From: Sulfolobales archaeon
GTDB lineage: Archaea > Thermoproteota > Thermoprotei_A > Sulfolobales > AG1
Direction: 5' to 3'
Assembly: GCA_038867615.1 (NCBI GenBank)
Contig: JAWBYA010000002.1
Coordinates: 320,001-384,000, forward strand
Length of the DNA: 64,000 nt
This document shows, piece by piece, positions 37,649 through 61,145 of the stretch (position 1 is the stretch's first letter; the number at the start of each line of letters is the position of its first letter). The position numbers and the translations under genes were made by a program. Below the pieces are notes generated by a model. That model searched no databases. It was not told the DNA's origin and worked only from the letters and a program-made list of their open reading frames with translations.

Positions 37649-38851
37649 GTGGAGGGGCTAAATAATACACAAGCCCGGTCTTTAAATATTAGTTGGGATA
37701 TCCATATCACTAGATGGGGAGAGCTGATCACAGAAGTACTAGCGCTTATAGAACGCAGATTCATAGTGCTTGATCATCATAAGGAGAGCTCTATGGGTGA
37801 TGACGAGGATAGAATCGAGATTGATATATATAGAGTAGCACCCCAAGATCCTTCCAGCATTGAGAGGAGCTTCAAAGAACTATATAGAGAAGTCATAAGC
37901 ATGGGTTATTATCCACAGCTGATAAGCATAGATGGCAATTACTATCTAAGAATATATAATATTGGGAAGAGAAGAAGCTATAACCCCCTAACAATAGTCA
38001 TACTATTGCTAGCATCCATAGCAACGGTCACCATAACCTCCTATATGTGGTATTCTCAAGATCTCGAGATAGCGAGAAGATTCGGCATAGAGACCGAATC
38101 CCTAAGACTCGGAACCATATATGTAGCAATACTAGCACTATCAATACTAGGACCTCTAGCTATACACGAGCTGGGGCATTTCCTAACCTCAAGGATCCTG
38201 AGACTACCAGCAACACCCCCCTACTTCATACCAGGCCCCCCTGGGATAGGGTTAGGTACTTTTGGTGCTGTGATACTCATGAGATTTCTACCAGCAACAG
38301 CCGATGATCTTGCCATGGTTGCTATAGCAGGACCCCTCGCCGGCTTCGCAGCAATCCTTATAGTGACGATCTATGGGATCTCGACCTCATATATGATTCC
38401 AAGCAGTATGGCTGCAAGCTTTCAGGAGATAAGCTTCTCACCACTGCTCTTCACGCTTATGGTTAACACGCTAGTAAATCCTGGGCAAGACGAGGTGGTG
38501 ATCCTAAACCCAGTCGCATATGCCGGCTACTTCCTCATGTTAATACATTTCCTAAACCTTCTTCCCGTGGCACAGCTTGATGGGGGTCAGGTTCTCAGAT
38601 CTCTTGTTAGCATGAGAACCCACATGATGATTGGCGTGACCATCTCCATAGCCATGATCGTTGCTGCAATGTTCCTCAGAGCCGAGATCCTCATAACCAT
38701 AGCGTTCTTCCTACTCATAATATTCCTAGCAACCGGGATGAGATCCCATCCAGGCCCCGCCTATAGGGAGGCTAAGCCGGGGTTGGGTGCTGCTATAGCG
38801 GCTATACTGTGGATCATAATGTTAGCCATGACAATCCCCCTGCCCCTGTGA
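37649..38851 (+). CDS. Site-2 protease (M50) family; true start may be somewhat downstream
   Basis: [23 protein letters not shown]; multi-TM. Confidence 0.9.
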
Positions 38852-43962: not shown

Positions 43963-44922
43963 ATGGTGAACAAACATATGCCGACTTCAGGGAAAACGCC
44001 TCTCGTCTTTCTAGCATCTGTTCTTCTGAATGCCGCCCAAGCAGCTGTTAAGCTGGCAGCCTTTATCATAGTAGGTTCTCTAGCAATCTATGCCGAGACA
44101 CTCCACTCGGTGAGCGATGTTATTAACAGCTTTATACTATACCTAGCATCATATATAATTGTTAATAAGAAACCCTCGCCAAAATACCCCTTCGGCTTTG
44201 GTAGGTTTCCCTATATAGCTAGCATAATCTCGATCTCGATCCTGGTAGGAGCTATAGCGAACAACATACTAACCCAGGCTTATGAGGCGCTCCATGAGGG
44301 AGGAAGGCTATATGGAGATGTGATCAGCGGAGCTTATCTACTAGCTATAGCGACATTCATGGATGTAGGTATACTACTCTTCATATTTATGGCGAGAGAT
44401 GCCTGGAGGAACCCATCGTCTAAGATGAGACCCTTATTCATGGCACTCATCCTTGAGGACTTATTCTCGTTTAGCGGGAACGCCATTGCTCTTGCCTCAC
44501 TATATATGATTGGGATAACTAGTATAGCAGATGTTATAGCATCTATAGTGATCGTCGCTATAATAATCATGGCATCTGCATATGTTATCTACAAAAACAT
44601 AGAGATCCTTATCGGAAGATCCGCTCCCAGAGATGTGATGCTCAAGATACTCAACAGAATATCAAAGATCTCTGATGTTGTCGATATAGACGACCTTAAG
44701 AGCTATGTATTAACCCCAGATAACATTGTGATAATGGCAACAATAGGTGTCGACCCGAGGAAGAGCATAGGCGATCTCGAAGCACTGAGGGAGAGAATAA
44801 TAAGGGAGATAACCAGCATCGACCCGAGAATCAAGAACGTGATTATCCAGTTCTCAAGCGAGCCTATAGATGACCGTGATAGGGATAAGATATACAGGGA
44901 AGTAAGCTCAATGGATGAATAG
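43963..44922 (+). CDS. Cation diffusion facilitator family transporter
   Basis: AETLHSVSD, YPFGFGR, LED, AD; about 6 TM plus cytoplasmic domain. Confidence 0.9.
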   Translation: MVNKHMPTSGKTPLVFLASVLLNAAQAAVKLAAFIIVGSLAIYAETLHSVSDVINSFILYLASYIIVNKKPSPKYPFGFGRFPYIASIISISILVGAIANNILTQAYEALHEGGRLYGDVISGAYLLAIATFMDVGILLFIFMARDAWRNPSSKMRPLFMALILEDLFSFSGNAIALASLYMIGITSIADVIASIVIVAIIIMASAYVIYKNIEILIGRSAPRDVMLKILNRISKISDVVDIDDLKSYVLTPDNIVIMATIGVDPRKSIGDLEALRERIIREITSIDPRIKNVIIQFSSEPIDDRDRDKIYREVSSMDE

Positions 44923-45245
44923 ATCTTAATTTATTTCAAGCGCCTCTAAAACAAACAGTGTAATAGCTATTTAGGATCTGTAAATAGATAATGGAGACCA
45001 TTAGATCCGAAGACTTATGTGCTATACCGTAATCAAAATAACCACCGCCCCGCCTATAGTAGCTTGATACACAAAACTTACAATAGCCTGTAGTAGTTTT
45101 TAAATATTTTATCTTATAATACCCTAATATAATAGCCTAAGGGAAAAATACTTTGATCTATGAAATCTTAATGACTCTATGACGCAAAACCAAGATCCAT
45201 GGTTAGAGGTTTTTATTACTAGGCATAACTATATTTAGATAAGCC

Positions 45246-45881
45246 ATGTTCTTAAAACCACATGAGGGTTTAGTCAAGATCTATGGGTCTAGAAAGCTTT
45301 TCCTAATATGGTGGCCTTTCACAATAGTTAATTTTAATACGTGTGAAAACAACTACCTCGTAGATCTTTTGGTGGCCTCTGAGATCACGGACCCCCTACC
45401 CCTGATCCTCACCATGAGGAGGTATAGGGATAAGCGTCCTATTGAACCCTCGCCATCTGTAGAGGCACCAATACTGATCCCAAGATCTGTTGGGCCTAAC
45501 ACCATAATGGAGCTGATCTATAAGATCAAGAAAGGAATCGAGATGACAAAGGATAAGGATACCTCTCAGAGTTCTCGGCCTGTTAGGAGTTATAGGTATC
45601 AGATGTTTTCTAAGAGACCAAGTACGCTTGAAGAGGCTATAGCTAACCCTGTCTCCAGAGGAATCCTCTCTGAGATCTTGTCATCAATATGCATTAGTAG
45701 CAATAACGTTAGGATCACATCATATAATCCGATACACGTTTTAGTAGGTATCAGTAAAGACATGAAAGAATTTAGCCTTTTCATGGATAAGAAGATCAGG
45801 AGTATTAACCACGAAATATACGTGTTAACCAACGAACATGTTAAAGACCTTATAGAGAAATATATGAAGTTGAACATCTAA
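45246..45881 (+). CDS. Hypothetical protein
   Basis: 211-aa ORF with upstream TATA-like sequence; no recognisable motif. Confidence 0.55.
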   Translation: MFLKPHEGLVKIYGSRKLFLIWWPFTIVNFNTCENNYLVDLLVASEITDPLPLILTMRRYRDKRPIEPSPSVEAPILIPRSVGPNTIMELIYKIKKGIEMTKDKDTSQSSRPVRSYRYQMFSKRPSTLEEAIANPVSRGILSEILSSICISSNNVRITSYNPIHVLVGISKDMKEFSLFMDKKIRSINHEIYVLTNEHVKDLIEKYMKLNI

Positions 45882-45929
45882 AACCAGTTGTGTTGTAAAT
45901 AAGAAGCCCAGCAACCGCAAACTCAAAGA

Positions 45930-45985
45930 GGATCAGCACTCAAGACCATGCTCATCACTCACATCTCCCGAGCTCATCACTCACC
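45930..45985 (-). ncRNA. Candidate C/D-box guide sRNA
   Basis: Minus strand GTGATGA-gctcgggagat-GTGA-GTGATGA-gcatggtcttgagtg-CTGA = C, guide, D'-like, C', guide, D; intergenic; AT-rich TATA-like sequence just upstream. Confidence 0.6.
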
Positions 45986-46232
45986 ATATATAATAATCTG
46001 CTCCCTTAAATCCAGGGGTTTAGGGTGCTTATTATAGCACTTACCAGGACTGGGCAGCAATAAGCAGATCTCTAGGATATAGAGGAGAGTTAACCACTAA
46101 AAACGATAATAGCCTCTTTCCCATTTTAAATGAAAGAGAATAGTAAGCTATAAGCGATCATGGTAGATGACTAGGATCTCTTTCCACACGGCCCCAAGAA
46201 TAGGGATTTAAGCGTTGGCTAGGAAAGGATCT

Positions 46233-46983
46233 ATGGTGAAATCCTTGCCCAGGTTCTTTACCGATCGTTTTATTCTCACACCCGGTCCTACAGAGATCCC
46301 TGTAAGGATAAGGATGGCCATGATACGCGAGGAGACCAACCCGGATCTCGACCCTGGTTTTCTGGAATTCTCTAGGAGGGTCTCTGACAAGCTGAAAACT
46401 GCTAGGGATAGGTAGGAGCAGCCTCTATATAATGGTTGGCGAAGCCATGTTGGGATTAGAGGCCGCTATAGCCAACATAGTTAGGCGTGGTGATAAAGTG
46501 CTTGTAGTCTCTAACGGTGTTTTTGGTGAGGGTTTCGCTGACCTTGTGAGGATGTATGGGGGTATTCCAGAGATTATTGAGTGTGATTGGAGGAGAAGCA
46601 TCGATGTTGGGAGTGTTGAGAATGTCTATGAGAGGCATAGAAAGGCTAGAGAGGCATCGTGGAGAGCCCTCGAAGCAGCAGGGTTAAAACCATACCCAGA
46701 ATCTAAGTAGTACTCTTCACCAACAGTCACAGCGATCGAGGTTCCTACAGGTGTCGATGAAGCTATGTTGAGAGAGATCATGTGGAGCAAATATGGCGTA
46801 ATGATAGCAGGGAGCTGGGGCAGACTTGCAGGAAGAGTTATAAGGATAGGGCATATGGGTGTCCAAGCATCAAGAAACCACTTGATCGTAGCCTTCACAG
46901 CGCTAGCGAGAGCACTAAGTGATATGGGATATAGGGTTAACATAGGAGGCGTTATAGAAGCTATAGAGAACACCTACACATAG
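46233..46983 (+). pseudogene. Class V PLP aminotransferase (serine-pyruvate/alanine-glyoxylate type) pseudogene
   Basis: ILTPGPTEIP; stop at 46413 plus frameshift; GEAMLGLEAAIAN, NGVFGE; large internal deletion removing the PLP-Lys region; in-frame TAG at 46708; SPTVTAI and IRIGHMG C-terminus. Confidence 0.9.
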
Positions 46984-46992
46984 CCTTCAACA

Positions 46993-47108
46993 CCGTCTAT
47001 TCTTTGATCCTTTCCTATGCTTTGCTACTATCTCGCTCTTTAGAAACCTCTACTATTATTTTTTATTATTCCATCCTAAGCTGAAACCAACAATATAGAG
47101 CTCCTTAT
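46993..47108 (-). mobile_element. Highly decayed IS200/IS605-like right-end remnant, copy B
   Basis: Minus strand ATAAGGAGCTCTATATTGTTGGTTTCAGC...GTAGAGGTTTCTA...GAATAGACGG follows the same layout, differing mostly by transitions. Confidence 0.3.
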
Positions 47109-47323
47109 ATATGGTTGTGCTCTCTCACCATATTTTCCTAATCGATGGATTCTCTAATTGCGACTCTACTTTAGCATCCCCTCTATAATTGATATCCATG
47201 ACTCCTAAGGTTTTCAGAGAGCAAGAACTGGTTCAATCCATAAACACATGCCCAGCTATATAGCATTGGTGACTATAGGATATAAGTGTATGTCTCAATA
47301 ACTACTAGGAGAGGTTTAGGTTT

Positions 47324-48214
47324 ATGGTTTTATATGAGCTTATTAAGGATCTAAAGGTTTCTGACGCATTAGTTGATGTTCCTTCATGCTATGTTGATGA
47401 CCCGCTAGCTATAGCTTTAGATATACTGGCTGCAAAGAGATCTCCCAGGAGGATTGTTATAATAGATAGGGAGAGGAAGGTTAGAGGTGTGATCACCTCC
47501 CTCAGGATCCTTGAGATCCTCTTAGGCTTCAGGGGTTCTGTGATGGTTAAGCTGAGAGGCTTGACCAGGGTTCTCAGGGAGAAGGTGATCCTTTTCTCCG
47601 ACGAGGCACCCTATACAATGGTTCGGGACACACCCCTAATATCGGTTATAAAACATATGGGTGAGAATAGCATACCAATGATACCGATAGTAGATGATCT
47701 GGGCACATATATGGGTGTAATCGACGAGACCCGCGTGCTAAAACTCCTCAAGGGGAGAACATTCGGAGAAGAAGTGTCAATAGCCATTGAGGCCGTATTC
47801 CCATCAGTATTTATGAGAGACACTGCTTTGAAGGCTGCCGAGGCTATGATAAAAGAGGTGAAGGGCAAGGCTGTGGTTCTTAACGATAAGAACCTGCCAG
47901 CCGGTGTTGTTACTGCGAAAGATATACTCAAACTACCCCTCGTGACTGAGGAGATAATAGAGCTTCTGAGAACAGATGTTGAGGTTGGTTTCGCAGATAT
48001 ACTTGGCAAGGTGGGTGTTACTAAAGTGATGAGCTCGCCAGCGATCATAGCTAGAGAGGGTGAAGATATAGGCAGAGCCATAGACACCATGATCGATAGC
48101 GATGTGGGGCTCTTACCGATTGTAAGCGAGAAGGAGGGAAGATTCACCGGGGTTTTAACAAGGATGAGTGTGATAAGAGCGATAGTGAGAGAACATATAA
48201 ATCCCCTGGGGTAA
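47324..48214 (+). CDS. CBS domain-containing protein (4 CBS)
   Basis: Repeated GVIT/GVID/GVVTAKD/GVLT and xPIVD motifs. Confidence 0.85.
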   Translation: MVLYELIKDLKVSDALVDVPSCYVDDPLAIALDILAAKRSPRRIVIIDRERKVRGVITSLRILEILLGFRGSVMVKLRGLTRVLREKVILFSDEAPYTMVRDTPLISVIKHMGENSIPMIPIVDDLGTYMGVIDETRVLKLLKGRTFGEEVSIAIEAVFPSVFMRDTALKAAEAMIKEVKGKAVVLNDKNLPAGVVTAKDILKLPLVTEEIIELLRTDVEVGFADILGKVGVTKVMSSPAIIAREGEDIGRAIDTMIDSDVGLLPIVSEKEGRFTGVLTRMSVIRAIVREHINPLG

Positions 48215-48219
48215 GGAGT

Positions 48220-49437
48220 GTGGATATAACAAGAAGGATCGAGGATTATATTGGGATCGTTGATAGAGATGAGATCGAGTATATCAAGGAGTTGGCAGAG
48301 AACGTAAAGGGAGCCAGGGTTCTCCATATAAACTCAACAAAGAAAGGTGGAGGAGTTGCCGAGATCCTTAGGAGTGTCGTTCCACTAGCAAACTCTCTAG
48401 GGCTTAAGGTTAGGTGGGAGGTGATAAGCGGGGATAGAGAGTTCTTTGAAGTAACTAAGAGTTTCCACAATGCTCTCCAGGGCAATAAGGTGCTAAAGCT
48501 TGGAGGAGACATGATTAGAAAGTATCTAGAAACTAACGAGATAAATGCTGGGAAAATCGATACTGATGCCGATGTTATCGTGATCCACGATCCACAGCCT
48601 GCAGCCCTGATATCTTATAAGAATAAAGGGAGCTCGAAGTGGATTTGGAGGTGCCATATAGACCTCTCGGATCCCAATGAGCAGTTCTGGAGCTTTCTAA
48701 GGGGCTTTGTGACCATGTATGATGCAGCTATATTCTCCCACGGTATATATGTGCCCAGGGATCTCAGAGGGATCAAGATCTATATATCCCACCCATCAAT
48801 AGACCCTCTGACCGATAAGAATAAGCCGCTAAGCCAGACAGAGATTGAGAGAACTATATCTAAATACGGAATAGATCCTGAGAAACCCTTGGTAGGACAA
48901 GTAGCCAGGTTCGACCCTTGGAAGGATCACCAATCAGTGGTTAGGGTTTATAAGGCTTTGAGACAGAAGGTGGAGAATCTACAGCTAGTGCTCCTAGGAT
49001 CCTTTGCCGACGACGATCCAGAGGGGGAAAGGATCTATAAAGAGGTTCTTAAAGAAACCGAGGGTCTTAGTGATGTGTATGTTATAAACGAGCACAACGA
49101 TTTTCTGGTAAACGCTATCCAGAGATCCATGGTTTTCGCATTCCAACTATCAATAAGAGAAGGTTTCGGACTAACAGTAAGCGAAGCTCTCTGGAAATAC
49201 ACACCAGTTATAGGGAGAAGAGCCGGAGGAATACCACTACAGGTAATAGATGGTGTGACAGGCTATTTAGTCAATAATATAGAAGAGGCATACGAAAAAG
49301 CCCTCATGCTCACAAAGAAGCCATGGCTAGCAAGAATGCTTGGTGCCAATGGACACCAACATGTTAAGAGGAACTTCCTGATCACAAGAGACCTAAGAGA
49401 CTATCTAAGAATACACATAGATCTCGTTGCCAGATAA
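48220..49437 (+). CDS. treT: Trehalose glycosyltransferring synthase (GT4)
   Basis: HINST..GGGVAEIL, TKSFHNALQG, IHDPQP, WRCHID, SIDPL, RFDPWK, DDPEG, EGFGLTVSEALWK. Confidence 0.9.
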   Translation: MDITRRIEDYIGIVDRDEIEYIKELAENVKGARVLHINSTKKGGGVAEILRSVVPLANSLGLKVRWEVISGDREFFEVTKSFHNALQGNKVLKLGGDMIRKYLETNEINAGKIDTDADVIVIHDPQPAALISYKNKGSSKWIWRCHIDLSDPNEQFWSFLRGFVTMYDAAIFSHGIYVPRDLRGIKIYISHPSIDPLTDKNKPLSQTEIERTISKYGIDPEKPLVGQVARFDPWKDHQSVVRVYKALRQKVENLQLVLLGSFADDDPEGERIYKEVLKETEGLSDVYVINEHNDFLVNAIQRSMVFAFQLSIREGFGLTVSEALWKYTPVIGRRAGGIPLQVIDGVTGYLVNNIEEAYEKALMLTKKPWLARMLGANGHQHVKRNFLITRDLRDYLRIHIDLVAR

Positions 49438-49503
49438 CCTAACCACCACCGCTCTCCACGATCTTGCCACACAGAGATCATCCTATTAACAAGACATTCA
49501 CAA

Positions 49504-49640
49504 CAGTTTGACCCTGGATGCTAATTCTACTCATTTTATTATTCATGGTCACATCCAAGGACTTCCGCCCCAACCCGCAGGATCTCTAACCCTGCGGGGT
49601 CATGGGAGTCTGTCGAGCCAAACAGCACCTGCCTCCCATC
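49504..49640 (-). mobile_element. Best-preserved IS200/IS605-like right end (omega-RNA-like scaffold) without tnpB, copy C
   Basis: Minus strand GATGGGAGGCAGGTGCTGTTTGGCTCGACAGACTCCCATGACCCCGCAGGGTTAGAGATCCTGCGGGTTGGGGCGGAAGTCCTTGGATG...CATCCAGGGTCAAACTG; two intact stems; reads DGRQVLFGSTDSHDP, like recalled crenarchaeal TnpB C-termini. Confidence 0.65.
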
Positions 49641-49826
49641 TACTAAGAGATCATCACCTAGATGGCTTGGAGCTTTGCTTCCATCGCTAGTCAATATGGA
49701 GACAAGTCCTACCAGCAGAGATAGATGTATATAGTTGATAGGGAGAGATCGCAATGATCGGGTTTGCAGAAAACTGCAAACCCAGAATATATAATCTTTC
49801 TACCACCGGGGGAGTTGGTGAATATA

Positions 49827-51329
49827 ATGGCGAGAATCGGTCGTGCCGGAAAGATACTACCCATTATATTGACAGCCATCCTAGTTTCTGGACTGCTATC
49901 CCCAATGATCAGTATAACCACAGCCCAGATTCAGAGGGATATAAATCTAACCATAATGCTTGAGAAAGTAAGATCTTCTGTGGTGCTTATAATAACAATA
50001 GTAAAGGCGGTGATAATATGGGAGGACTTTATACCACAGCTTCGAGAGGTTAGGATGGATCCTGTGGTGGAAGTAAGCACCATAGCCTTTGGCTCGGGGT
50101 TCTTTGTATCTAGCGATGGCTATATAATAACAAACGGGCATGTTGTTAACGACTACCAATCAGAGTTCCAAAGAGTCCTCCCCCTTCTGAAGGACTTTGT
50201 GCAACAGTATCTTGAAGCAAGGACAAAGACCACCGGCCAGCAGCCGAGCCAAGAGGAGATGCAACAACTATTTAGAGAAGTTATTAGGGCGTACTTAACT
50301 AATAGGTTGAAGATCCAAGACTATACTGTAGATGTGCGTGTTGGTGCTGGCAGGGTTGTTTCAGGCTTCGCCAACATAGGTAAGCTCTATACAGCAAGGA
50401 TAGCATATTCCTCCCCCTTTGAAAAGGAAGATCTAGCTTTACTAAAGATAGAGATAAAGAATGCCCCGTCTATCCGAGTGGCTCAGGAGAACATAGCCAG
50501 AGTAGGAGAGAGGGTTTGGGCTTTAGGATACCCAGGTGTTGTTACTTTCCATCAACTGCTGGGTGTGGAAACGCTCTTAGAGCCTACTATAACAGAGGGT
50601 ACCGTGAGTGGTTATAGGACGAAGACAGCTGGTGTGAGTGTTTTGCAATCTGACGTAACAGTTACGCATGGGAATAGCGGTGGGCCTGTTGTTAATTCAA
50701 ACGGTATCGTGGTTGCTGTAACGTCTTTCGGATCAGCGGATCCTTCGGATAGCGGTAGAGAGGTTCCTGGGTTCAATTTCTTCGTTCCGGCATCGTATGT
50801 CTATGATATTATCAGAAGGTTTTCCGTTAATAATGTTGAAAGCGAGACTATAAAGTTCTATGAGGAAGGTCTCAGGCTATTCTATCAGAAACAATACAGA
50901 GCCGCTATAGAGAGGTTCCAGATAGTCAAGAACCTATACCCAGGATTCCCATTCGTGGATGACTACATAACCGATGCCCAGAAAGCCATACTCAGAGGTG
51001 AAGAAGCCTCCCAGTTCCCCATAGACATGACAATGATAGCCATAATAGCGGTTGGAGCAGCTGCTGGTGGGGGAGCGGGGTATATGTTTCTAAGGAGGAG
51101 GAAAGAGGCGGTTGGTAAGGTAAAGGGACAGCAGGGTCAGTGGCAATACGGGCAACAGTGGGGATATCAGCAGCCTCAGCAACCGCCGAGCCCAGCCCAG
51201 ATGCCATTGCAATCGCCAGGGCCTCAGCAACCACCCAGACTTCCTCCGGGCTATAAGTTCTGTATAAACTGTGGTAAGATCATACCTGAGGATAGCACTA
51301 AATGCCCATACTGCAATGCGGATCAGTAG
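49827..51329 (+). CDS. Membrane-anchored trypsin-like (S1/HtrA-type) serine protease with TPR-like helix pair and cytoplasmic zinc ribbon
   Basis: Signal peptide; GSGFFV..DGYIITNGHV, DLALLKI, HGNSGGP triad; TM plus RRRK; Q/P-rich linker; FCINCG..CPYCN; ATG 49827 with GGTGA SD. Confidence 0.9.
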   Translation: MARIGRAGKILPIILTAILVSGLLSPMISITTAQIQRDINLTIMLEKVRSSVVLIITIVKAVIIWEDFIPQLREVRMDPVVEVSTIAFGSGFFVSSDGYIITNGHVVNDYQSEFQRVLPLLKDFVQQYLEARTKTTGQQPSQEEMQQLFREVIRAYLTNRLKIQDYTVDVRVGAGRVVSGFANIGKLYTARIAYSSPFEKEDLALLKIEIKNAPSIRVAQENIARVGERVWALGYPGVVTFHQLLGVETLLEPTITEGTVSGYRTKTAGVSVLQSDVTVTHGNSGGPVVNSNGIVVAVTSFGSADPSDSGREVPGFNFFVPASYVYDIIRRFSVNNVESETIKFYEEGLRLFYQKQYRAAIERFQIVKNLYPGFPFVDDYITDAQKAILRGEEASQFPIDMTMIAIIAVGAAAGGGAGYMFLRRRKEAVGKVKGQQGQWQYGQQWGYQQPQQPPSPAQMPLQSPGPQQPPRLPPGYKFCINCGKIIPEDSTKCPYCNADQ

Positions 51330-51353
51330 CGATAAGATCTAGGGGAGCTTGTT

Positions 51354-54002
51354 ATGAATAGATATAGACAAGGCCGAGCAAAGATCCAGAGGATAGTATT
51401 ATCACTACTCCTACTCCTAGCCCTATTACCAAACATCTCTATGAATATACCCAGCGTGCTGCTTACAAGCGGGGATACACAGCCCAAGATAGGGGATCAG
51501 TGGTTCTTCGAGATCTATAGCAACGAGCGAGTATATAGCCCCCGGGGTCCTGATAACTTCGTCTTAGTAGGCTACACCATAAATACTATTCAGGCAGCTA
51601 GTGGTGGTTACTATACACTCAACCAAACAACATTGAACTCCGATCGTGATGTGATAAACACAGTCCTATATACCCTCTACCCCGACTGGAAGATTAAGGA
51701 GGAGAGACAACCCACGGGATATGGCGAAACAATCGTTTACACCTACAAGCAACCACTACCCTTTGCCTTCATAGTACATCCAAGATCATCACAGGATTCG
51801 GGTAGCATTACCGCGGTGGCTGACAAGTACCAGGAGAGTAGCAGTGGTAGGACTTATCTTGGCAACATAACATATAACCTGAGATACCGTGTTAACGGTA
51901 CCATCCAGGTGGATTTCAAAGGCGTTAAGGTTCCAGCATACATGGTTGTTGAGAGTATAGATTACGAGGAATATGATGTTGAGCAAGGATACTCCAGCGG
52001 CTCTTTAGCGTTAATTTATCTGATCAACAATGACTTCAAACTACCCTTCAGCTACCAGTTCGTGGAAAACATAGAGGGCGTTGATATCGTTAGCAGCAAG
52101 GAAGAGCTGAAGGAATACAGGCTAGATCCTGACCCTATTGCTAAGTATAGAGGAACCACCACATATACCACAACGACTACCACAACCACGACGACCGGGA
52201 CTACCACGACTACATATACGCCGTCAGGGTCTATACAGCCCAAGGTAGGGGATCAGTGGTTTTACAATAGATATAGTAATGAGAGAGTATATAACCCCCA
52301 GGGTCCGGATAACTTCACCTTAACAGCAAACGACATATATACCATCCAGTCAGCAACTGGCGATTATTATATTCTCAACCAAACATCTGTTTTTAATGAG
52401 ACCGGGATCAGGGGAAGAGTTGTGACCATGATCGCCATGTACCCTAACTGGAGCGTTAAAGAGATGGATATATTATTCCTGCTGACTGCTAAAGTCATCT
52501 TCAAGCAACCCATGCCATTCGTGATCCATCCAAGATCGTCCCAGGATTCAGGGAGCATTATCGCAATAGCAGAGACGTATTTGTTTGGCAGCTACACAGG
52601 CAATGTCACATTCTATATAAACTATCGCGTGAATGGCACCACCTGGGTAACGATCAAAGGGGTTAAGGTACCAGCATACATAGTTATCCAAAAAGTCGAT
52701 GTTCAGACGTACACGGTCTCTGAGGGTCAAGAGAGCTATTCCAACGACTCCTACACCGAAGTCTATCTGATTAACAATGATTTCAAACTACCATTCCAAC
52801 GCCAAACTATAAGAACCATCAACGGGGTTGAAGTCGTTACAGAGAAGAGTGAGCTAGTAAGATATAACCTAGACCCAGATCCCATCGCTAAGTATGGAGG
52901 TACAACTACGACTACAACGACAACAACCACGACGATTGCTACGACTACCACAACGACAACAGCTACAACCCCGCCACCGGTTACTACTACAACCACAGCA
53001 ACACCAACGACAACAACTATAGGGCCTGCTCCTAAGAGTTATTATGTGTCTTTCATCCTTAGAAAGGAGGGTAACTATTCGGCTGCAAGTGTTCAGGTGC
53101 CTATAGAGATCACTGATCTTGATTCTGGCGATGTTGTTTCGACGTTCAATCTAACTGGTTCAAGGATTCTGAGGCTTCAGGAGTCTAGCTATGCCATTGC
53201 GGCATTGGTAACCGAGGATGCTACAAGCGATGGTAAGGGTTATTATAGGTTTATCAAGTGGGTTGTTGGTTCAAGGGAGTATACAGACCCTGTATTAGAG
53301 CTAGATCTCAGGCAAAACATAACAATAACAATGGTTATCGAGGTCTATACATTACAAGCCCAGGTACAGCCGGCGCAAACCCAGACAACAACCACAGCGG
53401 CAACGACAACAACACAGACCCCGAGAAACACAACAACCACAAGAACAGAGGTGGTGACGCCGCCTAGAACAACAGCACAGACAATACCAGGGAGTGGGGA
53501 TACAGGCAAAGGCAGTGGAGGCGATATAGGTGCAATACCACCCCCACAGGCAACCCAGACACAGGCCTGGTACTCTAACCCGCTTATAATAGGCTCCATA
53601 GCTGGTGGTGGCGCAGCAGCGATAGCCCTCTTTATACTGAAGAAGAGAAATACACTCAGAAGAGACGGCTATGCTAGGCCGGCTCCACCACCCCCACCAC
53701 CTCCTACTCCCTACGTCCCTCCACCCCAACCCACAACTCAGCAAGCCCAAACACCGCTGCCTCAACAACCACATGTCTCTCAAGCTCCTCCACAGCCATC
53801 AACCCAGCTGGGGATCATATGTCCTGTCTGTGGATATCAGAACCCGCCTTCGGCTAGGTTCTGCAGAAGCTGTGGATCCCAGTTACAACAGCTGCAACAG
53901 GCAGCACAGACTGGAGGGCAGAGGATATGCCCCCACTGTGGAACGCCTATAAGTTCTGCAACTGCCAAGTTCTGTCCTAAATGCGGTTCTAGGCTATCCT
54001 AG
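51354..54002 (+). CDS. Large surface protein: duplicated ~220-aa domain, Thr-rich linkers, TM, Pro/Gln-rich tail, two double-CxxC zinc ribbons
   Basis: Signal peptide; QPK(I/V)GDQWF...DPDPIAKY twice; poly-Thr tracts; TM then KKR; CPVCG..CRSCG and CPHCG..CPKCG. Confidence 0.88.
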   Translation: MNRYRQGRAKIQRIVLSLLLLLALLPNISMNIPSVLLTSGDTQPKIGDQWFFEIYSNERVYSPRGPDNFVLVGYTINTIQAASGGYYTLNQTTLNSDRDVINTVLYTLYPDWKIKEERQPTGYGETIVYTYKQPLPFAFIVHPRSSQDSGSITAVADKYQESSSGRTYLGNITYNLRYRVNGTIQVDFKGVKVPAYMVVESIDYEEYDVEQGYSSGSLALIYLINNDFKLPFSYQFVENIEGVDIVSSKEELKEYRLDPDPIAKYRGTTTYTTTTTTTTTTGTTTTTYTPSGSIQPKVGDQWFYNRYSNERVYNPQGPDNFTLTANDIYTIQSATGDYYILNQTSVFNETGIRGRVVTMIAMYPNWSVKEMDILFLLTAKVIFKQPMPFVIHPRSSQDSGSIIAIAETYLFGSYTGNVTFYINYRVNGTTWVTIKGVKVPAYIVIQKVDVQTYTVSEGQESYSNDSYTEVYLINNDFKLPFQRQTIRTINGVEVVTEKSELVRYNLDPDPIAKYGGTTTTTTTTTTTIATTTTTTTATTPPPVTTTTTATPTTTTIGPAPKSYYVSFILRKEGNYSAASVQVPIEITDLDSGDVVSTFNLTGSRILRLQESSYAIAALVTEDATSDGKGYYRFIKWVVGSREYTDPVLELDLRQNITITMVIEVYTLQAQVQPAQTQTTTTAATTTTQTPRNTTTTRTEVVTPPRTTAQTIPGSGDTGKGSGGDIGAIPPPQATQTQAWYSNPLIIGSIAGGGAAAIALFILKKRNTLRRDGYARPAPPPPPPPTPYVPPPQPTTQQAQTPLPQQPHVSQAPPQPSTQLGIICPVCGYQNPPSARFCRSCGSQLQQLQQAAQTGGQRICPHCGTPISSATAKFCPKCGSRLS
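51480..52895 (+). repeat. Internal tandem duplication (~665 bp x2) within the surface protein gene
   Basis: 51480-52147 vs 52236-52895 share blocks such as cagcccaag.taggggatcagtggtt, catccaagatc.tc.caggattc.gg.agcatta and aacaatga.ttcaaactacc.ttc. Confidence 0.9.
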
Positions 54003-56500
54003 AGGTTTTTATCCCTCCTGATACTTGATATTTGTTTTTTCAGCCTCTCTATGAATAGGCGTGCTTCTTCTTCTCTCCCCTTTGCAGCGTTTTCAAGCAT
54101 ATCTAGTGTTTGGGCTAGTATATCCTCGCCCCTCTTTTTCATACTATCTATACTCCATAGGATGGCTCCACAGATAGCCATCACATAGATCTTTCTATAA
54201 AAGCTACATCTATGGATATTACCAAGGCTCCATGCAACATCTTCCGAAGGATCTTCGCCTCTTAGATACTTAACCAACGCCCTACCAGTTCTAGCAAGCA
54301 CTAATGGTTCGCCCATCTTGATCTTGTTATTAGTCATGATCTCCTCGGCCTTGTCTAGATCTCTCTCGCCAGCCTCTAGATCTCCTAAGAGGAGCTTTGA
54401 TATTGACATATCTATATATATGCTAGCCTCTAAATATGGGTAGCCGGGCCCTAGGATTGTTGCTGCTTTTTCAAGCATCTCCACAGAGCCCTTAAGATCC
54501 GCTAACATGAAGAGGGTGCTAGCCAACTCTTTATACCCTATCGCCAGGCTATGCTTCGCACCGAGATCCTCAAAGATCTTCATGGCCGTTTTAAGGGAAT
54601 CGATGGAATCCCCATACCTAAGCATAAGCCTATAAGCCATGCTAAGCCATCCCCTAGCCAGTGCTTCTCCAAACCTATTCCCAAAGACCATGTATCTCTT
54701 CACAATATGCTCAAGAATCTCTACAGCCTTCTCTAGATCCCCCATCTGCTGGTAAGTAGCTGCAATGTTATAGAGAGCACTATCACGGGCCTCACGATCC
54801 CTGAGTTCCATTGACATCCTTAAAGCTTGGTTGAGCTCTCTAAGCGATTCTTCATATCTATCCAAATGTCTGTATATAATACCCATCTCGATCTTAACTC
54901 GGAGCAAGAGTCTCTTGGAATAAGCCTCACCTATCTCCCTAGCCCTTTCAAGATGATCCAGGCTGCTCCACGGATCTCCTCTAAGCTTCTCAACAATAGC
55001 CAGAGCAAGCTCAAACCAGCCGAGGTTTGTGGGGCTTTTCCACCTAACCGTATTTCTCGAAATCTTGTTGAGCACCTCGCCATATAGATGCAGACCGATC
55101 TTTCCTTGACTGATCGACTCAACAAGTTTGGGGAGCATCTCAGCAGCCTCTTCATACATGCCAGCATCTACATAGTGTTTCATAGCTACTAGATAGTCCT
55201 CGACGTATCCTCTAGATCTATGGTATGAGGCTATAATAGCGTGAAGCTCCTCGGGATCCTCTGTAACCCGTGCACATGTCTCTCTGATAAGCTCGTTAGC
55301 AGTATATCCTTCCCCTAACCTCTTGACCAGAAACATTCTCTCAAGCGTGCGGACAGCCTGTTTCGGATCGCTGATCCTGAGAAGCTTGATCATTGAGAAA
55401 GGCACTGGCCTCTCCGCTATCGAGATCAGCTCCAATACTCTACGCTCATCAGGAGATAATGCATCTATAACCTCGCTTACTATATATTCCATGGTTTTTG
55501 AGATCGCCTCGGAGCCTCTATGGCTCTTTAGTAATGATGAGTATAGCAATAACAGGTGGGGATGCCCACCAAATACGCTATAGAACCTCTCGAAATCCTC
55601 CAGCGATAAGCCTACCCTTTCAGCAAGGTCTCTAGCCTCTCCATACCCCATACCCCTCACCTCTATTGATGCACATCTTCCCAGGCAGTCTCTAGGCATC
55701 GTTCTCGATATTATGATCAGTTTGCTCTTGATCCTCCCAAGCTCTGATACGGACTTAACAAGATCGTGTATAACGGGATCGGTGTTTAGGTGATAGTCAT
55801 CAATAACTATAACCAGCTCCCTTGTCGAAAGCTCCTCAAGCAATAGGTTCATTAAGAGCCTCTCATCAGTAACACCACTATCAAGGGCTTCTAGTAGTCT
55901 TGGATATCCCAGTAAGTTGAGGAAGAGCGAGATCCTTCTAAGAAGCTGTATGAACGTGATCCCCCTATAGATCTGGTTCCAAAGCACAGGGATCTTAGAG
56001 TCGCTCAGAGCCCTAGCCACTAGAGAGGTTTTCCCTATCCCTGCAATGCCTACTACAAAAACAGGGTTTCCAACAGCCTTTTTCAAAGCATCTATATAGC
56101 TATCTCTACCCACGAAAACAGGTGTAGGGGGTGGGAGGAAATACATGTCATGCGCGGCTTTCCCGCCAGGCCTGCCAAGATCTATGCTAACGCCCCCAGC
56201 ACCTACCCTGATCAAGATCTCAGGGGATCTAGCATAGTAGAGCTTAACATTAACACCCTCCCTTCTAACCCACCTACCCTCTACCAAACCGAGCTTCTCT
56301 AGCTTAGAGAGCCTTCTAGATACTGCTGTCTCATCAGCACCTAAAACTGTGCTGAGCTTCCTGGGGTTAGATGGCATTGAGGAGAGCACAATTAAGATCT
56401 TTAGCGATAAATCATCGGCTAGCGTGGAAAGGATCTCACCGGATCTCTCACGCCCCTCCTCGCTCCTGGGATTGTCGCTAATCATCTCGTTCGGAGCCAC
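53999..56500 (-). CDS. ArsR-type HTH + STAND P-loop ATPase + TPR repeat protein (MalT/NB-ARC-like architecture)
   Basis: N-terminal wHTH; FVGR; Walker A GIAGIGKT; Walker B LVIVIDDYH; IIISR sensor; GGHP GxP motif; long C-terminal TPR array. Confidence 0.88.
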   Translation of the reverse strand: MAPNEMISDNPRSEEGRERSGEILSTLADDLSLKILIVLSSMPSNPRKLSTVLGADETAVSRRLSKLEKLGLVEGRWVRREGVNVKLYYARSPEILIRVGAGGVSIDLGRPGGKAAHDMYFLPPPTPVFVGRDSYIDALKKAVGNPVFVVGIAGIGKTSLVARALSDSKIPVLWNQIYRGITFIQLLRRISLFLNLLGYPRLLEALDSGVTDERLLMNLLLEELSTRELVIVIDDYHLNTDPVIHDLVKSVSELGRIKSKLIIISRTMPRDCLGRCASIEVRGMGYGEARDLAERVGLSLEDFERFYSVFGGHPHLLLLYSSLLKSHRGSEAISKTMEYIVSEVIDALSPDERRVLELISIAERPVPFSMIKLLRISDPKQAVRTLERMFLVKRLGEGYTANELIRETCARVTEDPEELHAIIASYHRSRGYVEDYLVAMKHYVDAGMYEEAAEMLPKLVESISQGKIGLHLYGEVLNKISRNTVRWKSPTNLGWFELALAIVEKLRGDPWSSLDHLERAREIGEAYSKRLLLRVKIEMGIIYRHLDRYEESLRELNQALRMSMELRDREARDSALYNIAATYQQMGDLEKAVEILEHIVKRYMVFGNRFGEALARGWLSMAYRLMLRYGDSIDSLKTAMKIFEDLGAKHSLAIGYKELASTLFMLADLKGSVEMLEKAATILGPGYPYLEASIYIDMSISKLLLGDLEAGERDLDKAEEIMTNNKIKMGEPLVLARTGRALVKYLRGEDPSEDVAWSLGNIHRCSFYRKIYVMAICGAILWSIDSMKKRGEDILAQTLDMLENAAKGREEEARLFIERLKKQISSIRRDKNL

Positions 56501-56614
56501 CGCCTGACTCTTTAATAACTAACCTTCTATATATATAACGAGATAATATATGATAACATCACTTGCTCGAAAGCGGGTTATAACTGTCCTAGCGATAGAT
56601 ATACCAGAGGGTAT

Positions 56615-57745
56615 ATGAAGCAAGCAGAACTATATAGAAAGCTTGAAGATAAGCGGGTTGAGTGCCTAGCCTGTGCGAGGAGGTGCAGGCTAGCCCCGGG
56701 ACAGATAGGTTTCTGTGGGGTTAGGGGTAACAAGGAGGGGGAGTTATATTTATTGGTATATGGTAAGGTTATAGCGATGCATGTAGATCCTATTGAGAAG
56801 AAGCCTTTAAGCCACTTCCACCCAGGATCGATGGTTCTCTCGATAGCCACTACAGGTTGTAGCTGGGCATGTATGTATTGCCAGAACTTCGATATATCCC
56901 AAAGGAGGGTTGTAGAGGGTTTCGAGGTATCGCCAGAGGAGATTGTCGACATAGCTTTGAAGGTGGGCGCACAGGGGATAACGTATACCTATAACGAGCC
57001 AAGCATCTTCGCCGAGTTTGCCCACGATGTTGGGGTTGCTGCTCACAAGAGGGGTCTTTTCAACAATTTCGTCTCTAACGGCTATCTAACGGATGAGGCT
57101 GTTGACTATTTATCAAAATTCCTCGATGCTATTACAGTTGATTTTAAAGGGAATGCCGATGATACCTTCGCAAGGAAATTCATACTTATACCAAGCTATA
57201 AACCTGTTTTCGATGCTCTCTTGGAGCTTAAGAGGAAGAAGATCCACATAGAGATCACAGATCTAGTGATTCCGAAGGTTGGAGACGATCTGGAGAAGGC
57301 CAGAAAGCTTGTGAAATGGATCCACGATAACCTTGGTCCCGAGACACCTATCCATTTCCTAAGATTCCACCCCGACTACAAGATGATGGATTACCCCTGG
57401 ACCCCTATAGAGACTCTTGAGAAGCATATCAAAATAGCTAGGGAGGAGGGGATGAAATATGTCTATATAGGCAACGTACCAGGCCATCCAGATGAGCACA
57501 CATACTGTCCAAAATGCGGTAATGTAGTGATAGAGAGATACGGCTTCGAGATAGTGAGTTGGAGACTTACGAAAGATAATAGGTGTAGATTCTGTGGCGA
57601 GAAAATACCAATAGTAGGAACGCTCCACGAGACATATAGGGATAACAGGTTTTTCCCAATACCGATCTATAGGCTTAAGAGATTCGAAAGAGTAGATGCC
57701 AAAAAGATCTTGACATCGTCGAAGGAGCAGAGCAAGCGCAACTGA
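56615..57745 (+). CDS. amrS: AmmeMemoRadiSam system radical SAM enzyme
   Basis: [63 protein letters not shown]. Confidence 0.9.
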
Positions 57746-57788
57746 TCTATAAAAGCTTATAATCAAGCTAACACTATCACACATTGTG

Positions 57789-58127
57789 ATGAGCTTGGTG
57801 AAAGTTTTGCTCTTAATCATGTCAGGCGACGAAAAAGCAGATCTTGGAGTTAGGTTCGCCTATAGATCAATAGAGAATCAGAGGTTCGAAGACCTGAAAG
57901 TCATATTCTTCGGCCCTAGCCAGAAGAGGATCCTAGAGTACAGTGGTGAGATGAAGAAAATGCTGGATGAACTAAAGAAAAGAGGAGCTGTCGATGCTGC
58001 ATGTATAGGCGTAGCCAAGGATCTAGGGATCGAAAAGCCTCTGGAAGATCTCGGGCTCGCCTTAGTACCTGTGGGCAATAGAATCAAGTATTTCTTAGAA
58101 AAAGGATACCAGGTTATATCTTTCTAG
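57789..58127 (+). CDS. DsrE-like small protein
   Basis: KVIFFGPS, AACIGVA, GYQVISF pattern. Confidence 0.75.
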   Translation: MSLVKVLLLIMSGDEKADLGVRFAYRSIENQRFEDLKVIFFGPSQKRILEYSGEMKKMLDELKKRGAVDAACIGVAKDLGIEKPLEDLGLALVPVGNRIKYFLEKGYQVISF

Positions 58128-58129
58128 CA

Positions 58130-58420
58130 CTATTTAGTAGCAAGCTCCTGCTCGGTTTTTCTCCTCTTAACGGCGGCGTCAAACACTATCCAGTTTCTAT
58201 ACCACTCCTCGTTTTCCCTCCTCAAGAGCTCTAGAACCATTCTAGTAAGATCTTTTGCAGATACCTCCTTAACACCTTGATCTAGAAGCCTTCCCTCAAT
58301 TATTTTAGCGATCTTTCTAGCGGCATCAAGCGTAGCCCCTGCCTTCATACAGCTCACAACGATTTTTTCGAACACGAATTCCTCCTTACTACCATCTCTT
58401 TTTACAACATATATGGTCAA
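58130..58420 (-). CDS. Stand-alone ATP-cone domain protein
   Basis: VVKRDGSKEEFVFEKI..SC..AG. Confidence 0.88.
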   Translation of the reverse strand: MTIYVVKRDGSKEEFVFEKIVVSCMKAGATLDAARKIAKIIEGRLLDQGVKEVSAKDLTRMVLELLRRENEEWYRNWIVFDAAVKRRKTEQELATK

Positions 58421-58599
58421 GACCCGATCACCATAACAATATCTTCAATTAAAAATATATCTATCATACTAATGTATCATAGATCCTTGACAATAATAAG
58501 ACACACATGCCATAGCCCCGCGCTCTGCCCTAATAAGCTGATTTCTATGTCAACCCTTGATTGGTTGAAGAATACCACTTAGGCGGAAAGAGCTTATCC

Positions 58600-58743
58600 T
58601 AGAGATCTTCATATCGCTTGGCTCAGCGTTAGCATCACGAACGTGTGATAGAGCTTCCTTAGAGTATGTAAGAGTTTTTAGATGGGATGTAGAAGTATGT
58701 AGAAGAAAACAAATAATATCAACAAATATCAAGAGACAAACAG
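58600..58743 (+). mobile_element. Highly decayed IS200/IS605-like right-end remnant, copy D
   Basis: CATATCGCTTGGCTCAGC...GATGTAGAAGTATGTAGAAG...A-rich...AAGAGACAAACAG follows the layout of copies C and E. Confidence 0.3.
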
Positions 58744-58809
58744 ATAACAACATATATCTGACTAGTATGAACTATATACTGGTGGTTTGAAATACTGGTA
58801 TTCGCACTC

Positions 58810-59985
58810 GTGAAAGGAGTTCCAGCGAACACAGCAAGGGTTGTGACTGTAGGCGGTATCCTGAGGAGGGAGGAGATGGATATAGTTCTGAATCCTTATG
58901 ATAGGAAAACAATCGAGGCTGCTGATTATATGAGGAGAAGGGTTGGGGGAAAGCTTGTGGCAATGTCTATGGGTCCCCACCCAAAGATCATACCTATAAT
59001 GAGAGAGATCTTCGATGCAGAGGTTTCTGGAATAGATGAGGCATATATATTAAGCGACAAGAGAATGGCTGGTGCTGATACATGGGCTACATCATATACG
59101 CTCTCTAGAGGGATCTTAAAAGTATTATCTATACATAGAGAAGCGGTTGAGATGCTGGCTAACGCCATAGAATCTGGCGAGGCTATAGATAAGGTTGAGG
59201 CCCTAGCAACAGATCTATATAGGAGGAACCTTATACCCAACAAGATCTATAGTGATAAGCCATCAATAAGGGATACCCTTATTAATATGCTTAGAGAGGG
59301 AAAGATCTCTAGGAGCGATGCTGTAGAGCTCCTCAAGGAGGAGGCGAAGAGAGTTACAACGAACTTCGTTATTTTCTGTGGGATGAAAGCAGCTGATGGA
59401 GAGACTGGTAACGTTGGCCCCCAGGTTGCTGAGGCCCTTTCACAGGAGCTTGGGCTCACAATACCCCATGCGTCCTTTGTGGTTGATTATGAGTATATCG
59501 GTGAGAGGAACTCTCTCCTAGTTAAGAGGAGGCTCATAAACGTCATGCAGATCATAGAGTTAGATCTCCCGTCTGTTCTAACAATACATGTAGACTACTC
59601 AGCACCGCCTGTACCTCTCTCTGGCAGGAGAGCTTCTCTTATGAATTCATATAGGGGCAAAAACACCAATATAACTATATGGTCTGCTGACGATATAAAG
59701 GCTGATCCAAGATATATAGGACTTGCTGGATCGCCAACCGTGGTTGGCCCAGGTATTGATATTGGTAGACCTCATGTTAGAAAGATTGTTGGATTATCTA
59801 TCATAGCTGCCAAGGATATCGATAAGATCAGCTATGGTGATAAGACCTATGGTCCCTTCAAAAAAGGAGATCTTCTTGACAGCCTGCCCGAGGATCTTAA
59901 GAGGGATCTAGCAGCAAAGGGGCTGGCTAAGACCTTTGATTACGAGGATCTTGCTGAAGAGATCATAAACATATTGAGGGGGTAG
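58810..59985 (+). CDS. fixA: Electron transfer flavoprotein beta subunit (FixA/EtfB), enlarged; start probably slightly upstream
   Basis: VKGVP, LNPYD, SMGP, GADTWATS..L, DGETGNVGPQVA, GLAGSPTVV. Confidence 0.9.
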   Translation: MKGVPANTARVVTVGGILRREEMDIVLNPYDRKTIEAADYMRRRVGGKLVAMSMGPHPKIIPIMREIFDAEVSGIDEAYILSDKRMAGADTWATSYTLSRGILKVLSIHREAVEMLANAIESGEAIDKVEALATDLYRRNLIPNKIYSDKPSIRDTLINMLREGKISRSDAVELLKEEAKRVTTNFVIFCGMKAADGETGNVGPQVAEALSQELGLTIPHASFVVDYEYIGERNSLLVKRRLINVMQIIELDLPSVLTIHVDYSAPPVPLSGRRASLMNSYRGKNTNITIWSADDIKADPRYIGLAGSPTVVGPGIDIGRPHVRKIVGLSIIAAKDIDKISYGDKTYGPFKKGDLLDSLPEDLKRDLAAKGLAKTFDYEDLAEEIINILRG

Positions 59986-59993
59986 ATGGTTCT

Positions 59994-61145
59994 ATGCAGC
60001 CGCAAAACCGGCAGGCACCGACTCTCAACATGCTTCCATCAACTCCAGATATAGAGAGCTATAGGGATGTCTGGACATTCGTCGAGATCTTTAGAGGAGA
60101 ACTGATAAGCTATAGCCTTGAGGGGATAGCTGCTGCTAAAAAGATAGCTTCTAAGGTTGGCATGAAAGTAGGGGCTCTCGTAGCTGGCGATAAAGTTAGC
60201 GATGATATTGCTAAAACACTGATAGAACACGGCGCAGACTATGTAGTTGCTGTAGAACACCAATACCTAGCTGATTACGAGCCCCTCGCCTATACCGAGG
60301 CTTTGGAAGAGATTGTGAGGCTTAGGAAGCCGTGGGCTCTTATATTTATGGCCGATGAGGTGGGCAGAGATCTAGCCCCAAGACTTGCCTACAGGCTTGT
60401 CACAGGGCTTGCTACAGATAATATTGATTTCGATGTCGAGGACTTTTTCCACGGACTCTTGAAAGAGAAGTTCTCAAACATACTGGCTCAGATAAGGCCT
60501 GACTTTGCTACAAGGATAGCTAAGATATATACGCCGAGACATAGACCCCAGATAGCGTCTCTCCGACCGGGCTCTTTCAAACCACTCCAGAGAGATCCAT
60601 CTAGGGTTGGGGATGTATATAGATACACACCAGCACTTAAAAATTACCAGAAGAAAGTAAGGATCGTGGACTACGAGAAGATCGAGGATAGAGGCGCTGA
60701 GCTCCTAAGCGCGAAGTTGATAGTGGGTCTAGGGCTAGGGATCTTGAGGGATGCCGAGGGAAACGCCAAGAACCCTCTAGAGGCTGTCGACATGGCTAAA
60801 AAGATCCTAGATCTTGTCAGAAGAAAACTCGGTGTGGAGACAGCACTGGGAGCTTCTAGAGCACTTATACATGCAGATGTAAAGGAGCTGAGGGAGATCA
60901 TAACACACGATATACAGATCGGACAGACCGGAAAGACAGTATCGCCCAAGGTATATATAGCTGCTGGTATAAGTGGTGCGATACAACATAGAGTAGGGAT
61001 CCTGAGGGCCGGCAGTGTGGTTGCCATAAATATAGACTCCAGAGCACCGATACACGAGATAGCTCACTACTCAATAATAGAAGACCTATATAGAGCCTTA
61101 CCTAAGCTTTACGAGGCGTTGCAGAAAAAGCTTGAGAGTAGGTGA
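59994..61145 (+). CDS. fixB: Electron transfer flavoprotein alpha subunit (FixB/EtfA)
   Basis: GRDLAPRLA..L.TGL, GASRA, QIGQTGKTVSPKVYIAAGISGAIQH, AIN.D..API. Confidence 0.93.
   Translation: MQPQNRQAPTLNMLPSTPDIESYRDVWTFVEIFRGELISYSLEGIAAAKKIASKVGMKVGALVAGDKVSDDIAKTLIEHGADYVVAVEHQYLADYEPLAYTEALEEIVRLRKPWALIFMADEVGRDLAPRLAYRLVTGLATDNIDFDVEDFFHGLLKEKFSNILAQIRPDFATRIAKIYTPRHRPQIASLRPGSFKPLQRDPSRVGDVYRYTPALKNYQKKVRIVDYEKIEDRGAELLSAKLIVGLGLGILRDAEGNAKNPLEAVDMAKKILDLVRRKLGVETALGASRALIHADVKELREIITHDIQIGQTGKTVSPKVYIAAGISGAIQHRVGILRAGSVVAINIDSRAPIHEIAHYSIIEDLYRALPKLYEALQKKLESR

Follow-up and report, generated by a model that had tools for sequence, protein, structure and literature searches.

We analysed a locus of three genes in a 64,000-nucleotide stretch of contig JAWBYA010000002.1 from a Sulfolobales archaeon (assembly GCA_038867615.1), called the window below. 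The genes encode a membrane-anchored trypsin-like protease, a partner surface protein and a regulator of the PH0952 family of STAND proteins. The regulator likely binds a 24-bp palindrome and switches on the protease-partner operon as well as two genes for giant surface proteins, its own gene being parked beside one of the target operons. The observations behind this reading are the domain anatomy and family membership of the regulator, the gene linkage, the palindrome with its position and the kind of genes that stand behind it. Coordinates of the features are collected in Table 1.

The palindrome first emerged from reading upstream of 27 genes and follows the consensus GGTTTG(A/C)-N8..10-(T/G)CAAACC; an AT-rich box comes only a few bases behind it. 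Before the protease operons, 11 in all, it keeps 12-14 of the 14 consensus positions. The 2.2-Mb genome of the archaeon itself contains three sites at spacer 8 with at most one mismatch over 16 half-site positions, one of them by construction; control spacers (n = 11) gave no perfect site and two one-mismatch sites. The other two sites stand before the genes for the genome's two largest anchored proteins, one of 2200 amino acids (aa) with DUF7619 and one of 2058 aa, and the relative G003 has the same three sites. A first matrix of mixed register had left the own-genome signal unclear and was replaced by fixed-register scans. With a matrix made from the 11 protease promoters alone, 18 of 41 other STAND loci gave 20 hits, corresponding to 19 sites with spacers of 8-10. 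Ten control spacers together produced 5 hits, the 29 control loci had none, and about 1.4 hits are expected from the own-genome control rate. Sixteen of the 19 sites are intergenic, and 7 intergenic sites were new relative to the inspection by eye.

The location of sites that lie away from a STAND gene is consistent with a dispersed regulon. In genomes that encode STAND proteins all 13 selected close-fit sites of this kind precede a gene, and 11 of the 13 genes encode a signal peptide, compared with a base rate of 7.8%. By contrast, none of the seven close-fit sites in STAND-lacking genomes precedes a gene and five fall inside open reading frames (ORFs). Both giant proteins of this genome are predicted surface proteins with the candidate operator in front of their genes. 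The 2200-aa protein (L304:4512-11114(+), i.e. G000:C2:419512-426114) has DUF7619 towards its C-terminal end, and its long central part looks helical. The 2058-aa protein (L305:4146-10322(-), i.e. G000:C1:301146-307322) has internal hydrophobic segments and matches no Pfam or NCBIfam model. In relatives, homologues of both giant genes are neighbours of the trio and also have the site (G095, E 2e-61; G004/L133, 31% identity over 2260 columns). Throughout the regulator family the targets or neighbours are mostly anchored surface proteins, comprising trypsin-like protease and partner, clostripain, transglutaminase-like, DUF7619, CARDB, beta-helix and WD40 proteins, with a subtilase next door in two family loci; genes that depart from this pattern include one for an ion channel and a glycosyltransferase-like one. 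At 54 family loci, surface and housekeeping genes are seen as neighbours.

Judged by its sequence, the regulator is a member of the described PH0952 family and a STAND transcription factor. A profile built from 12 homologues matches the crystal structure 6MFV with E 3.6e-125 (422 bits), and its positions 119-738 align as one stretch to residues 8-595 of 6MFV with the winged-helix domain of the STAND core, the arm and the TPR region collinear. Residues G151-T158, D234, R266 and G312/P314 are invariant or nearly so in 40 alignment rows. The sensor matches TPR_12 with E 4.6e-21. The N-terminal winged helix scores 23 bits against HTH_24 (cutoff 21.9) and 21 bits against HTH_5 (cutoff 22), and the residues of its recognition helix are conserved. 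The score for the NCBIfam MalT model is 23.6 versus a cutoff of 537. In the available part of the structural and phylogenetic account, PH0952-type proteins form the sister clade of APAF1, are represented by 6MFV and have homologues in Crenarchaeota (PMC6468293). A DNA site, target or inducer for PH0952-type proteins was not found in the literature covered, which did not extend to supplementary data.

An earlier note on this DNA, made without database searches, had described the trio but missed the palindrome, and its anatomy of the genes stands. The ORF coordinates agree with the three genes, with the gap of 24 bp between the first two and with the 4 bp by which the convergent genes overlap, and Pfam matches to winged helix-turn-helix (HTH), AAA_16 and TPR models confirm the order of HTH, STAND ATPase and TPR sensor assigned to the regulator. 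The intact triad without a PDZ domain attributed to the protease was recovered as invariant alignment columns and a Pfam Trypsin_2 match. Protease and partner do share the membrane design noted before, each with an N-terminal hydrophobic segment, a Gly-rich C-terminal transmembrane (TM) helix, a basic stop, a Gln/Pro linker and a CxxC..CxxC tail. The duplication of the partner ectodomain is supported by 52% identity over 237 columns (E 2e-82), and the predicted site-2 protease (S2P) near 37.6 kb corresponds to a Peptidase_M50 gene at 37649-38851. In terms of interpretation, the functional unit of three genes and the NLR/MalT-like transcription factor were retained, while the zinc-ribbon relay, release by S2P and a role in defence were not. 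The statement that this was no described system needs a similar division: the regulator family was already described (PMC6468293, as far as available), and its targets were not found in the literature.

The linkage of the three genes was followed in 351 genomes of the class, with a threshold of E 1e-30 for the protease profile and neighbourhoods taken from whole-genome searches. The protease is found in 12 genomes, in one of them (G005) as a pseudogene. The remaining 11 genomes, and no others, have the partner ectodomain, in every case immediately behind the protease; the pair is a small, always co-occurring family, and no description of it was found in the literature. A PH0952-type regulator is present in 11/11 pair genomes versus 67/351 overall. 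In 8 of the 11 it is adjacent to the pair. Five of these are convergent (G000, G002, G003, G004, G095; in G003 and G095 the partner is split by a contig break, across which the adjacency is read), and in the other three (G131, G132, G135) the regulator gene is co-directional and lies upstream; G153, G189 and G191 encode it away from the pair. In genera g30 (1/8) and g40 (1/4) the sole genome with the protease is also the sole genome with a STAND regulator. In G005 (93% complete) the protease gene (L231:3730-4572) is frameshifted after the signal peptide and ends before the catalytic serine, and operator, partner and STAND gene were not found. Gene linkage is thus kept in three families and two gene orders, and the unlinking of the STAND gene elsewhere, named in the earlier note as the outcome that would speak against its proposal, is not the pattern found.

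We ascribe this linkage to the shared candidate operator. The regulators of the 11 pair genomes fall into two supported groups in a tree of 54 rows from which proteins of 690 residues or less were excluded, and the two subfamilies are about 21-24% identical. A single grouping was rejected with p-AU 0.02 in an approximately unbiased (AU) test of 32 rows under a simple model, the trees being quick LG+G4 searches and the tested group having been named after the first tree was seen. As the pair is served by two different regulators, a family-wide DNA site fits the linkage better than a co-evolved protein interface.

The protease triad is invariant in 30/30 aligned homologues, and an insert of ~70 residues follows His105 in the catalytic domain. 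No PDZ domain was found in a Pfam scan at E 0.01. Scores for HtrA models reach at most 79 bits versus cutoffs of at least 408, and DegP/DegS are the closest solved relatives (E about 1e-20). The TM helix comprises residues 404-422, and behind it the zinc ribbon is well conserved among homologues while the linker is not. Bacterial relatives combine the same extracellular part with an FHA domain, with zinc ribbons or with no tail, and the protease tail is therefore best described as an exchangeable module. At 18 loci of bacterial relatives a STAND-sized soluble neighbour was not apparent among the three genes on each side, as judged by length and sequence ends and not by a family scan. One FHA-type relative (L071) lies upstream of genes that look phosphatase-like and kinase-like in sequence, and the zinc-ribbon-tailed bacterial relatives are found in clostridia-type loci (set L071, L062, L065, L068, L145, L151).

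In the partner the TM helix spans residues 744-762, and a third beta-rich domain at about residues 563-668, missed in the earlier note, precedes it. The ectodomain is single-copy in 7/10 aligned partners, where two of the seven rows end at contig ends and one (G095) matches a two-copy protein; as far as this alignment goes, the duplication is lineage-specific. The best structural match of copy 2 is BDI_3050 (4fvs; Z 13.2, root mean square deviation (rmsd) 3.8, 184 residues aligned), and Foldseek retrieves 3fzx, 4fvs and 2in5 with E 2-6e-4. MucB matches weakly (Z 8.7, rmsd 4.5, 148 aligned) and ranks 31 among many beta-barrel matches, and LolA-like proteins are weaker structural matches. Language-model neighbours of the domain include DUF3108-like clusters (0.87-0.89), which serve as a lead only. 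Among 1.84 billion proteins the domain has 16 representatives; the 10 inspected are all surface-type with a C-terminal hydrophobic anchor, and 9/10 have a Cys-rich tail end. Rather than being the signal itself, the zinc-ribbon tails probably serve as general modules for interactions in the cytoplasm.

By analogy with MalT and PH0952, the regulator would rest as an ADP-bound monomer. Binding of an inducer to the TPR/arm region would allow exchange for ATP and drive oligomerisation, and the winged helices could then engage the two half-sites of the palindrome. The position of the site suggests that activation would proceed by helping transcription factor B (TFB) onto the promoter, in the manner of TFB-RF1, which binds upstream of the TATA box, recruits TFB and activates according to the available part of its description (PMC5937170). 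Protease and partner may form one surface unit, in which the partner would hold a substrate or ligand on its Thr-rich stalks for the protease to cut; this step is more tentative than the preceding ones. A peptide or other breakdown product might enter the cell as inducer and give feed-forward induction, as maltotriose does for MalT. Our guess that such a product of surface hydrolysis is the most likely inducer follows from the fact that several family targets are anchored proteases (trypsin-like, clostripain). If the proposed regulation is correct, it would reveal the means by which Thermoproteota regulate surface proteins of great size and cost. With a 24-bp site and named candidate targets the function can be tested directly, and they provide a reporter for finding the inducer.

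Several points weigh against this proposal. The pairing of regulator and site is deduced from sequence, and another regulator could read the site; likewise, activation rather than repression is inferred from the position of the site only, and the BRE (TFB recognition element), pyrimidine-rich in family f10 promoters, is close to consensus at the protease promoter here. The matrix left 23/41 test loci without a site above threshold, 3/19 sites lie inside ORFs, and 9/18 matrix-positive loci had already been inspected by eye. The 20 stretches compared between genomes with and without STAND proteins were picked by eye from a genome-wide list for close fit to the consensus; two of the 13 far sites come from a near relative, and the targets of 2/13 are not surface proteins. 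Loose patterns discriminate poorly, one matching 183/351 genomes genome-wide and another 31/67 STAND genomes versus 76/284 others. The genomes are also related and often incomplete. As regards a peptide inducer, many targets (DUF7619, CARDB, beta-helix, WD40) lack a protease domain.

The main competing explanation adds a trans-envelope relay with feedback to the regulon: the partner would sense a ligand outside, the protease would cut the partner, and a zinc-ribbon tail would hold or release the STAND protein at the membrane, similar to MalK and MalT or to the DegS-RseA-RseB-RseP proteolytic cascade that acts on sigma-E. Protease and partner stay together in all 11 genomes, the protease zinc ribbon is conserved while its linker varies, DegP/DegS are the nearest solved relatives, the partner fold weakly resembles MucB and LolA-like proteins, and the family f2 loci have a gene for a soluble PRC-barrel/double-zinc-ribbon protein placed between a clostripain target and the STAND gene. 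The regulon member MalK tethers MalT at the membrane (PMC10427625, as far as available), and because of this precedent and the inseparable pair the relay could act as an added feedback layer. Similar tails, however, occur on bacterial protease relatives without a STAND-sized neighbour, with FHA or no tail in others; 31 further archaeal genomes match the tail region of the partner only, most of them without a STAND protein; and a zinc-ribbon neighbour is absent at most STAND loci. The S2P gene lacks the operator and, beyond the present genome, was seen close to the locus only in a genome of the same genus. The two distinct regulator subfamilies serving one pair argue in the same direction, which is why the tails and S2P release were not upheld as the link. 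A complex prediction for regulator and partner double zinc ribbon scored 0.00 and, made without controls, counts neither way. Altogether we consider the relay rather unlikely. The stronger version, a self-contained envelope-to-promoter pathway on an NLR/APAF1-related switch, in which the cut partner's tail or a released peptide would trigger or free the STAND protein and thus activate its own operon and the giant proteins through the palindrome, is doubtful to the same degree. If this is true, a pathway gated by a protease would take the place of two-component signalling in Thermoproteota.

It is clearly less probable that a different factor recognises the palindrome or that the STAND protein represses, with its adjacency reflecting co-transfer of a surface-protein cassette. 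Apart from the indirect pairing of regulator and site, many STAND loci lack a strong site, and a ~50-residue protein, encoded right behind the operator at several loci, could itself act on DNA. This small protein was not found in the present genome in a six-frame search (best E about 2), yet the genome has three clean sites; moreover, close-fit sites of STAND-lacking genomes are not at gene starts, site, pair and STAND gene are all missing or broken in G005, and the site occupies the position ahead of the TATA box from which TFB-RF1 acts as an activator (PMC5937170, available part). An antiviral or anti-predator defence module of the Avs/NLR type, a role in defence having been raised in the earlier note, is the least credible alternative and very improbable. 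The giant targets are variable surface proteins for which a role in conflict is conceivable, and a STAND-TPR architecture is common to Avs proteins. PADLOC, however, returned only Csa3/CARF/CasR-type HTH matches for the regulator, generic matches for the protease and no Avs model; the effector is a DNA-binding winged helix rather than a nuclease or similar domain. The flanking genes are metabolic (CBS, TreT, radical SAM, DsrE, ETF) and not those of a defence island, and the GC content of the locus equals that of the window.

Each of the three genes is single-copy in the genome (tblastn). Of three raw-read runs, one, a hot-spring metatranscriptome, gave reads: at low depth, these are strand-consistent over all three genes and the 2058-aa gene, with 42/98 reads at >=99% identity over a 14-kb stretch of the locus. 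The reads show transcription only, their depth being insufficient for start sites or co-regulation. Upstream of the operator, the same intergenic region contains a short GC-rich inverted repeat (window 49571-49598) with no Rfam match; no RNA family was found by Rfam within 44000-60000. A divergent gene for a 524-aa secreted orphan shares the intergenic region of the 2058-aa gene.

Further observations concern related loci. The four family f2 loci (L253, L256, L257, L259) have operators with a 10-base spacer and a STAND gene flanked by an anchored clostripain and the soluble PRC-barrel/double-zinc-ribbon protein, with a transglutaminase-like gene on the other side of the STAND gene in 3/4. The ~50-residue protein is conserved beside the STAND gene in 16 PH0952-family loci (e.g. 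L224:1967-2125(-), L046:4817-5047(-), L249:9594-9797(-)), is below ordinary ORF cut-offs and is a candidate feedback inhibitor. At L308:7133-7175 (G113) one operator with TATA-like boxes on both sides separates an ion-channel gene from a 657-aa gene that has no Pfam match. In genus g5 (L049, L241, L243) PH0952-type genes are located near a sugar-type ABC transporter cluster and no operator above threshold is present; therefore part of the family may use a different site and control a different regulon.

Table 1. Coordinates of the locus features (window positions; motif positions of the regulator are residue numbers)
Feature	Position	Strand	Description
24-bp palindrome GGGTTTGC-N8-GCAAACCC	49760..49783	.	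Candidate operator of the STAND regulator; precedes 11/11 protease operons; outside the coordinates of the earlier note
TATA-like box	49788..49795	+	Follows the palindrome at a distance of 4 bases; aligned promoters have an AT-rich box 4-6 bases behind the site
Membrane-anchored trypsin-like serine protease, 500 aa	49827..51329	+	Signal peptide, catalytic domain, predicted helical segment, C-terminal TM, Gln/Pro linker, one zinc ribbon
Catalytic triad codon span (His105, Asp202, Ser284)	50139..50678	+	Invariant columns in alignment
Partner surface protein, 882 aa	51354..54002	+	Signal peptide, two ~220-residue all-beta domains, Thr-rich linkers, further beta domain, TM, Pro/Gln linker, double zinc ribbon
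Ectodomain copy 1	51474..52145	+	52-53% identical to copy 2
Ectodomain copy 2	52230..52892	+	Predicted curved beta-sheet or open barrel, YmcC-like; AlphaFold2 pLDDT 93.8
Double zinc ribbon	53820..53984	+	Predicted cytoplasmic tail of partner; Pfam Zn_Ribbon_1, DZR
PH0952-family regulator, 833 aa	53999..56500	-	N-terminal winged helix, STAND NOD, arm, TPR sensor
Regulator NOD motifs	Walker A 151-158, Walker B 232-235, sensor Arg266, GxP 312-314	-	From alignment

The comparison with known systems places the regulator in a known family with the working principle of MalT; new are the candidate operator in Thermoproteota, the proposed dispersed regulon and the protease-partner pair. PH0952 of Pyrococcus horikoshii (6MFV) has the same domain order, with an ArsR-like N-terminal DNA-binding domain, NOD, arm and TPR sensor. 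It is described as a predicted or putative transcription factor with no inducer, site or target given in the available part of that work (PMC6468293), whereas a candidate operator and candidate target genes are defined here. MalT of Escherichia coli is likewise a STAND-TPR transcription factor acting on envelope genes, and inducer-triggered oligomerisation is a property of MalT (PMC10427625, PMC6468293, as far as available). Its DNA-binding domain is C-terminal, however, while the PH0952 family combines an N-terminal winged helix with a palindromic site, and its targets are maltose uptake genes, as opposed to the large surface proteins and proteases that are the candidate targets here. With HtrA/DegS and the DegS-RseA-RseB-RseP system the locus shares a trypsin-fold catalytic domain and a single-pass partner whose beta-sheet ectodomain weakly resembles MucB/RseB. 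The protease differs in lacking PDZ, in its C-terminal anchor and cytoplasmic zinc ribbon, in the large insert after the catalytic His and in scoring below the HtrA cutoffs. The partner ectodomain is similar in predicted fold (TM-score about 0.5) to YmcC-like beta proteins (BF2203 3fzx, BDI_3050 4fvs, YmcC 2in5; DUF3108-like) and differs from them in sequence (7-12% identity). For the promoter, TFB-RF1 (PF1088) of Pyrococcus furiosus provides the closest parallel, since its palindrome also lies just upstream of BRE and TATA box at a conserved distance, an archaeal activator geometry. Its site is TCTG-N5-CAGA and its target an ABC transporter, and the available part of the report mentions no STAND switch (PMC5937170); in these respects it differs from the candidate operator described here.

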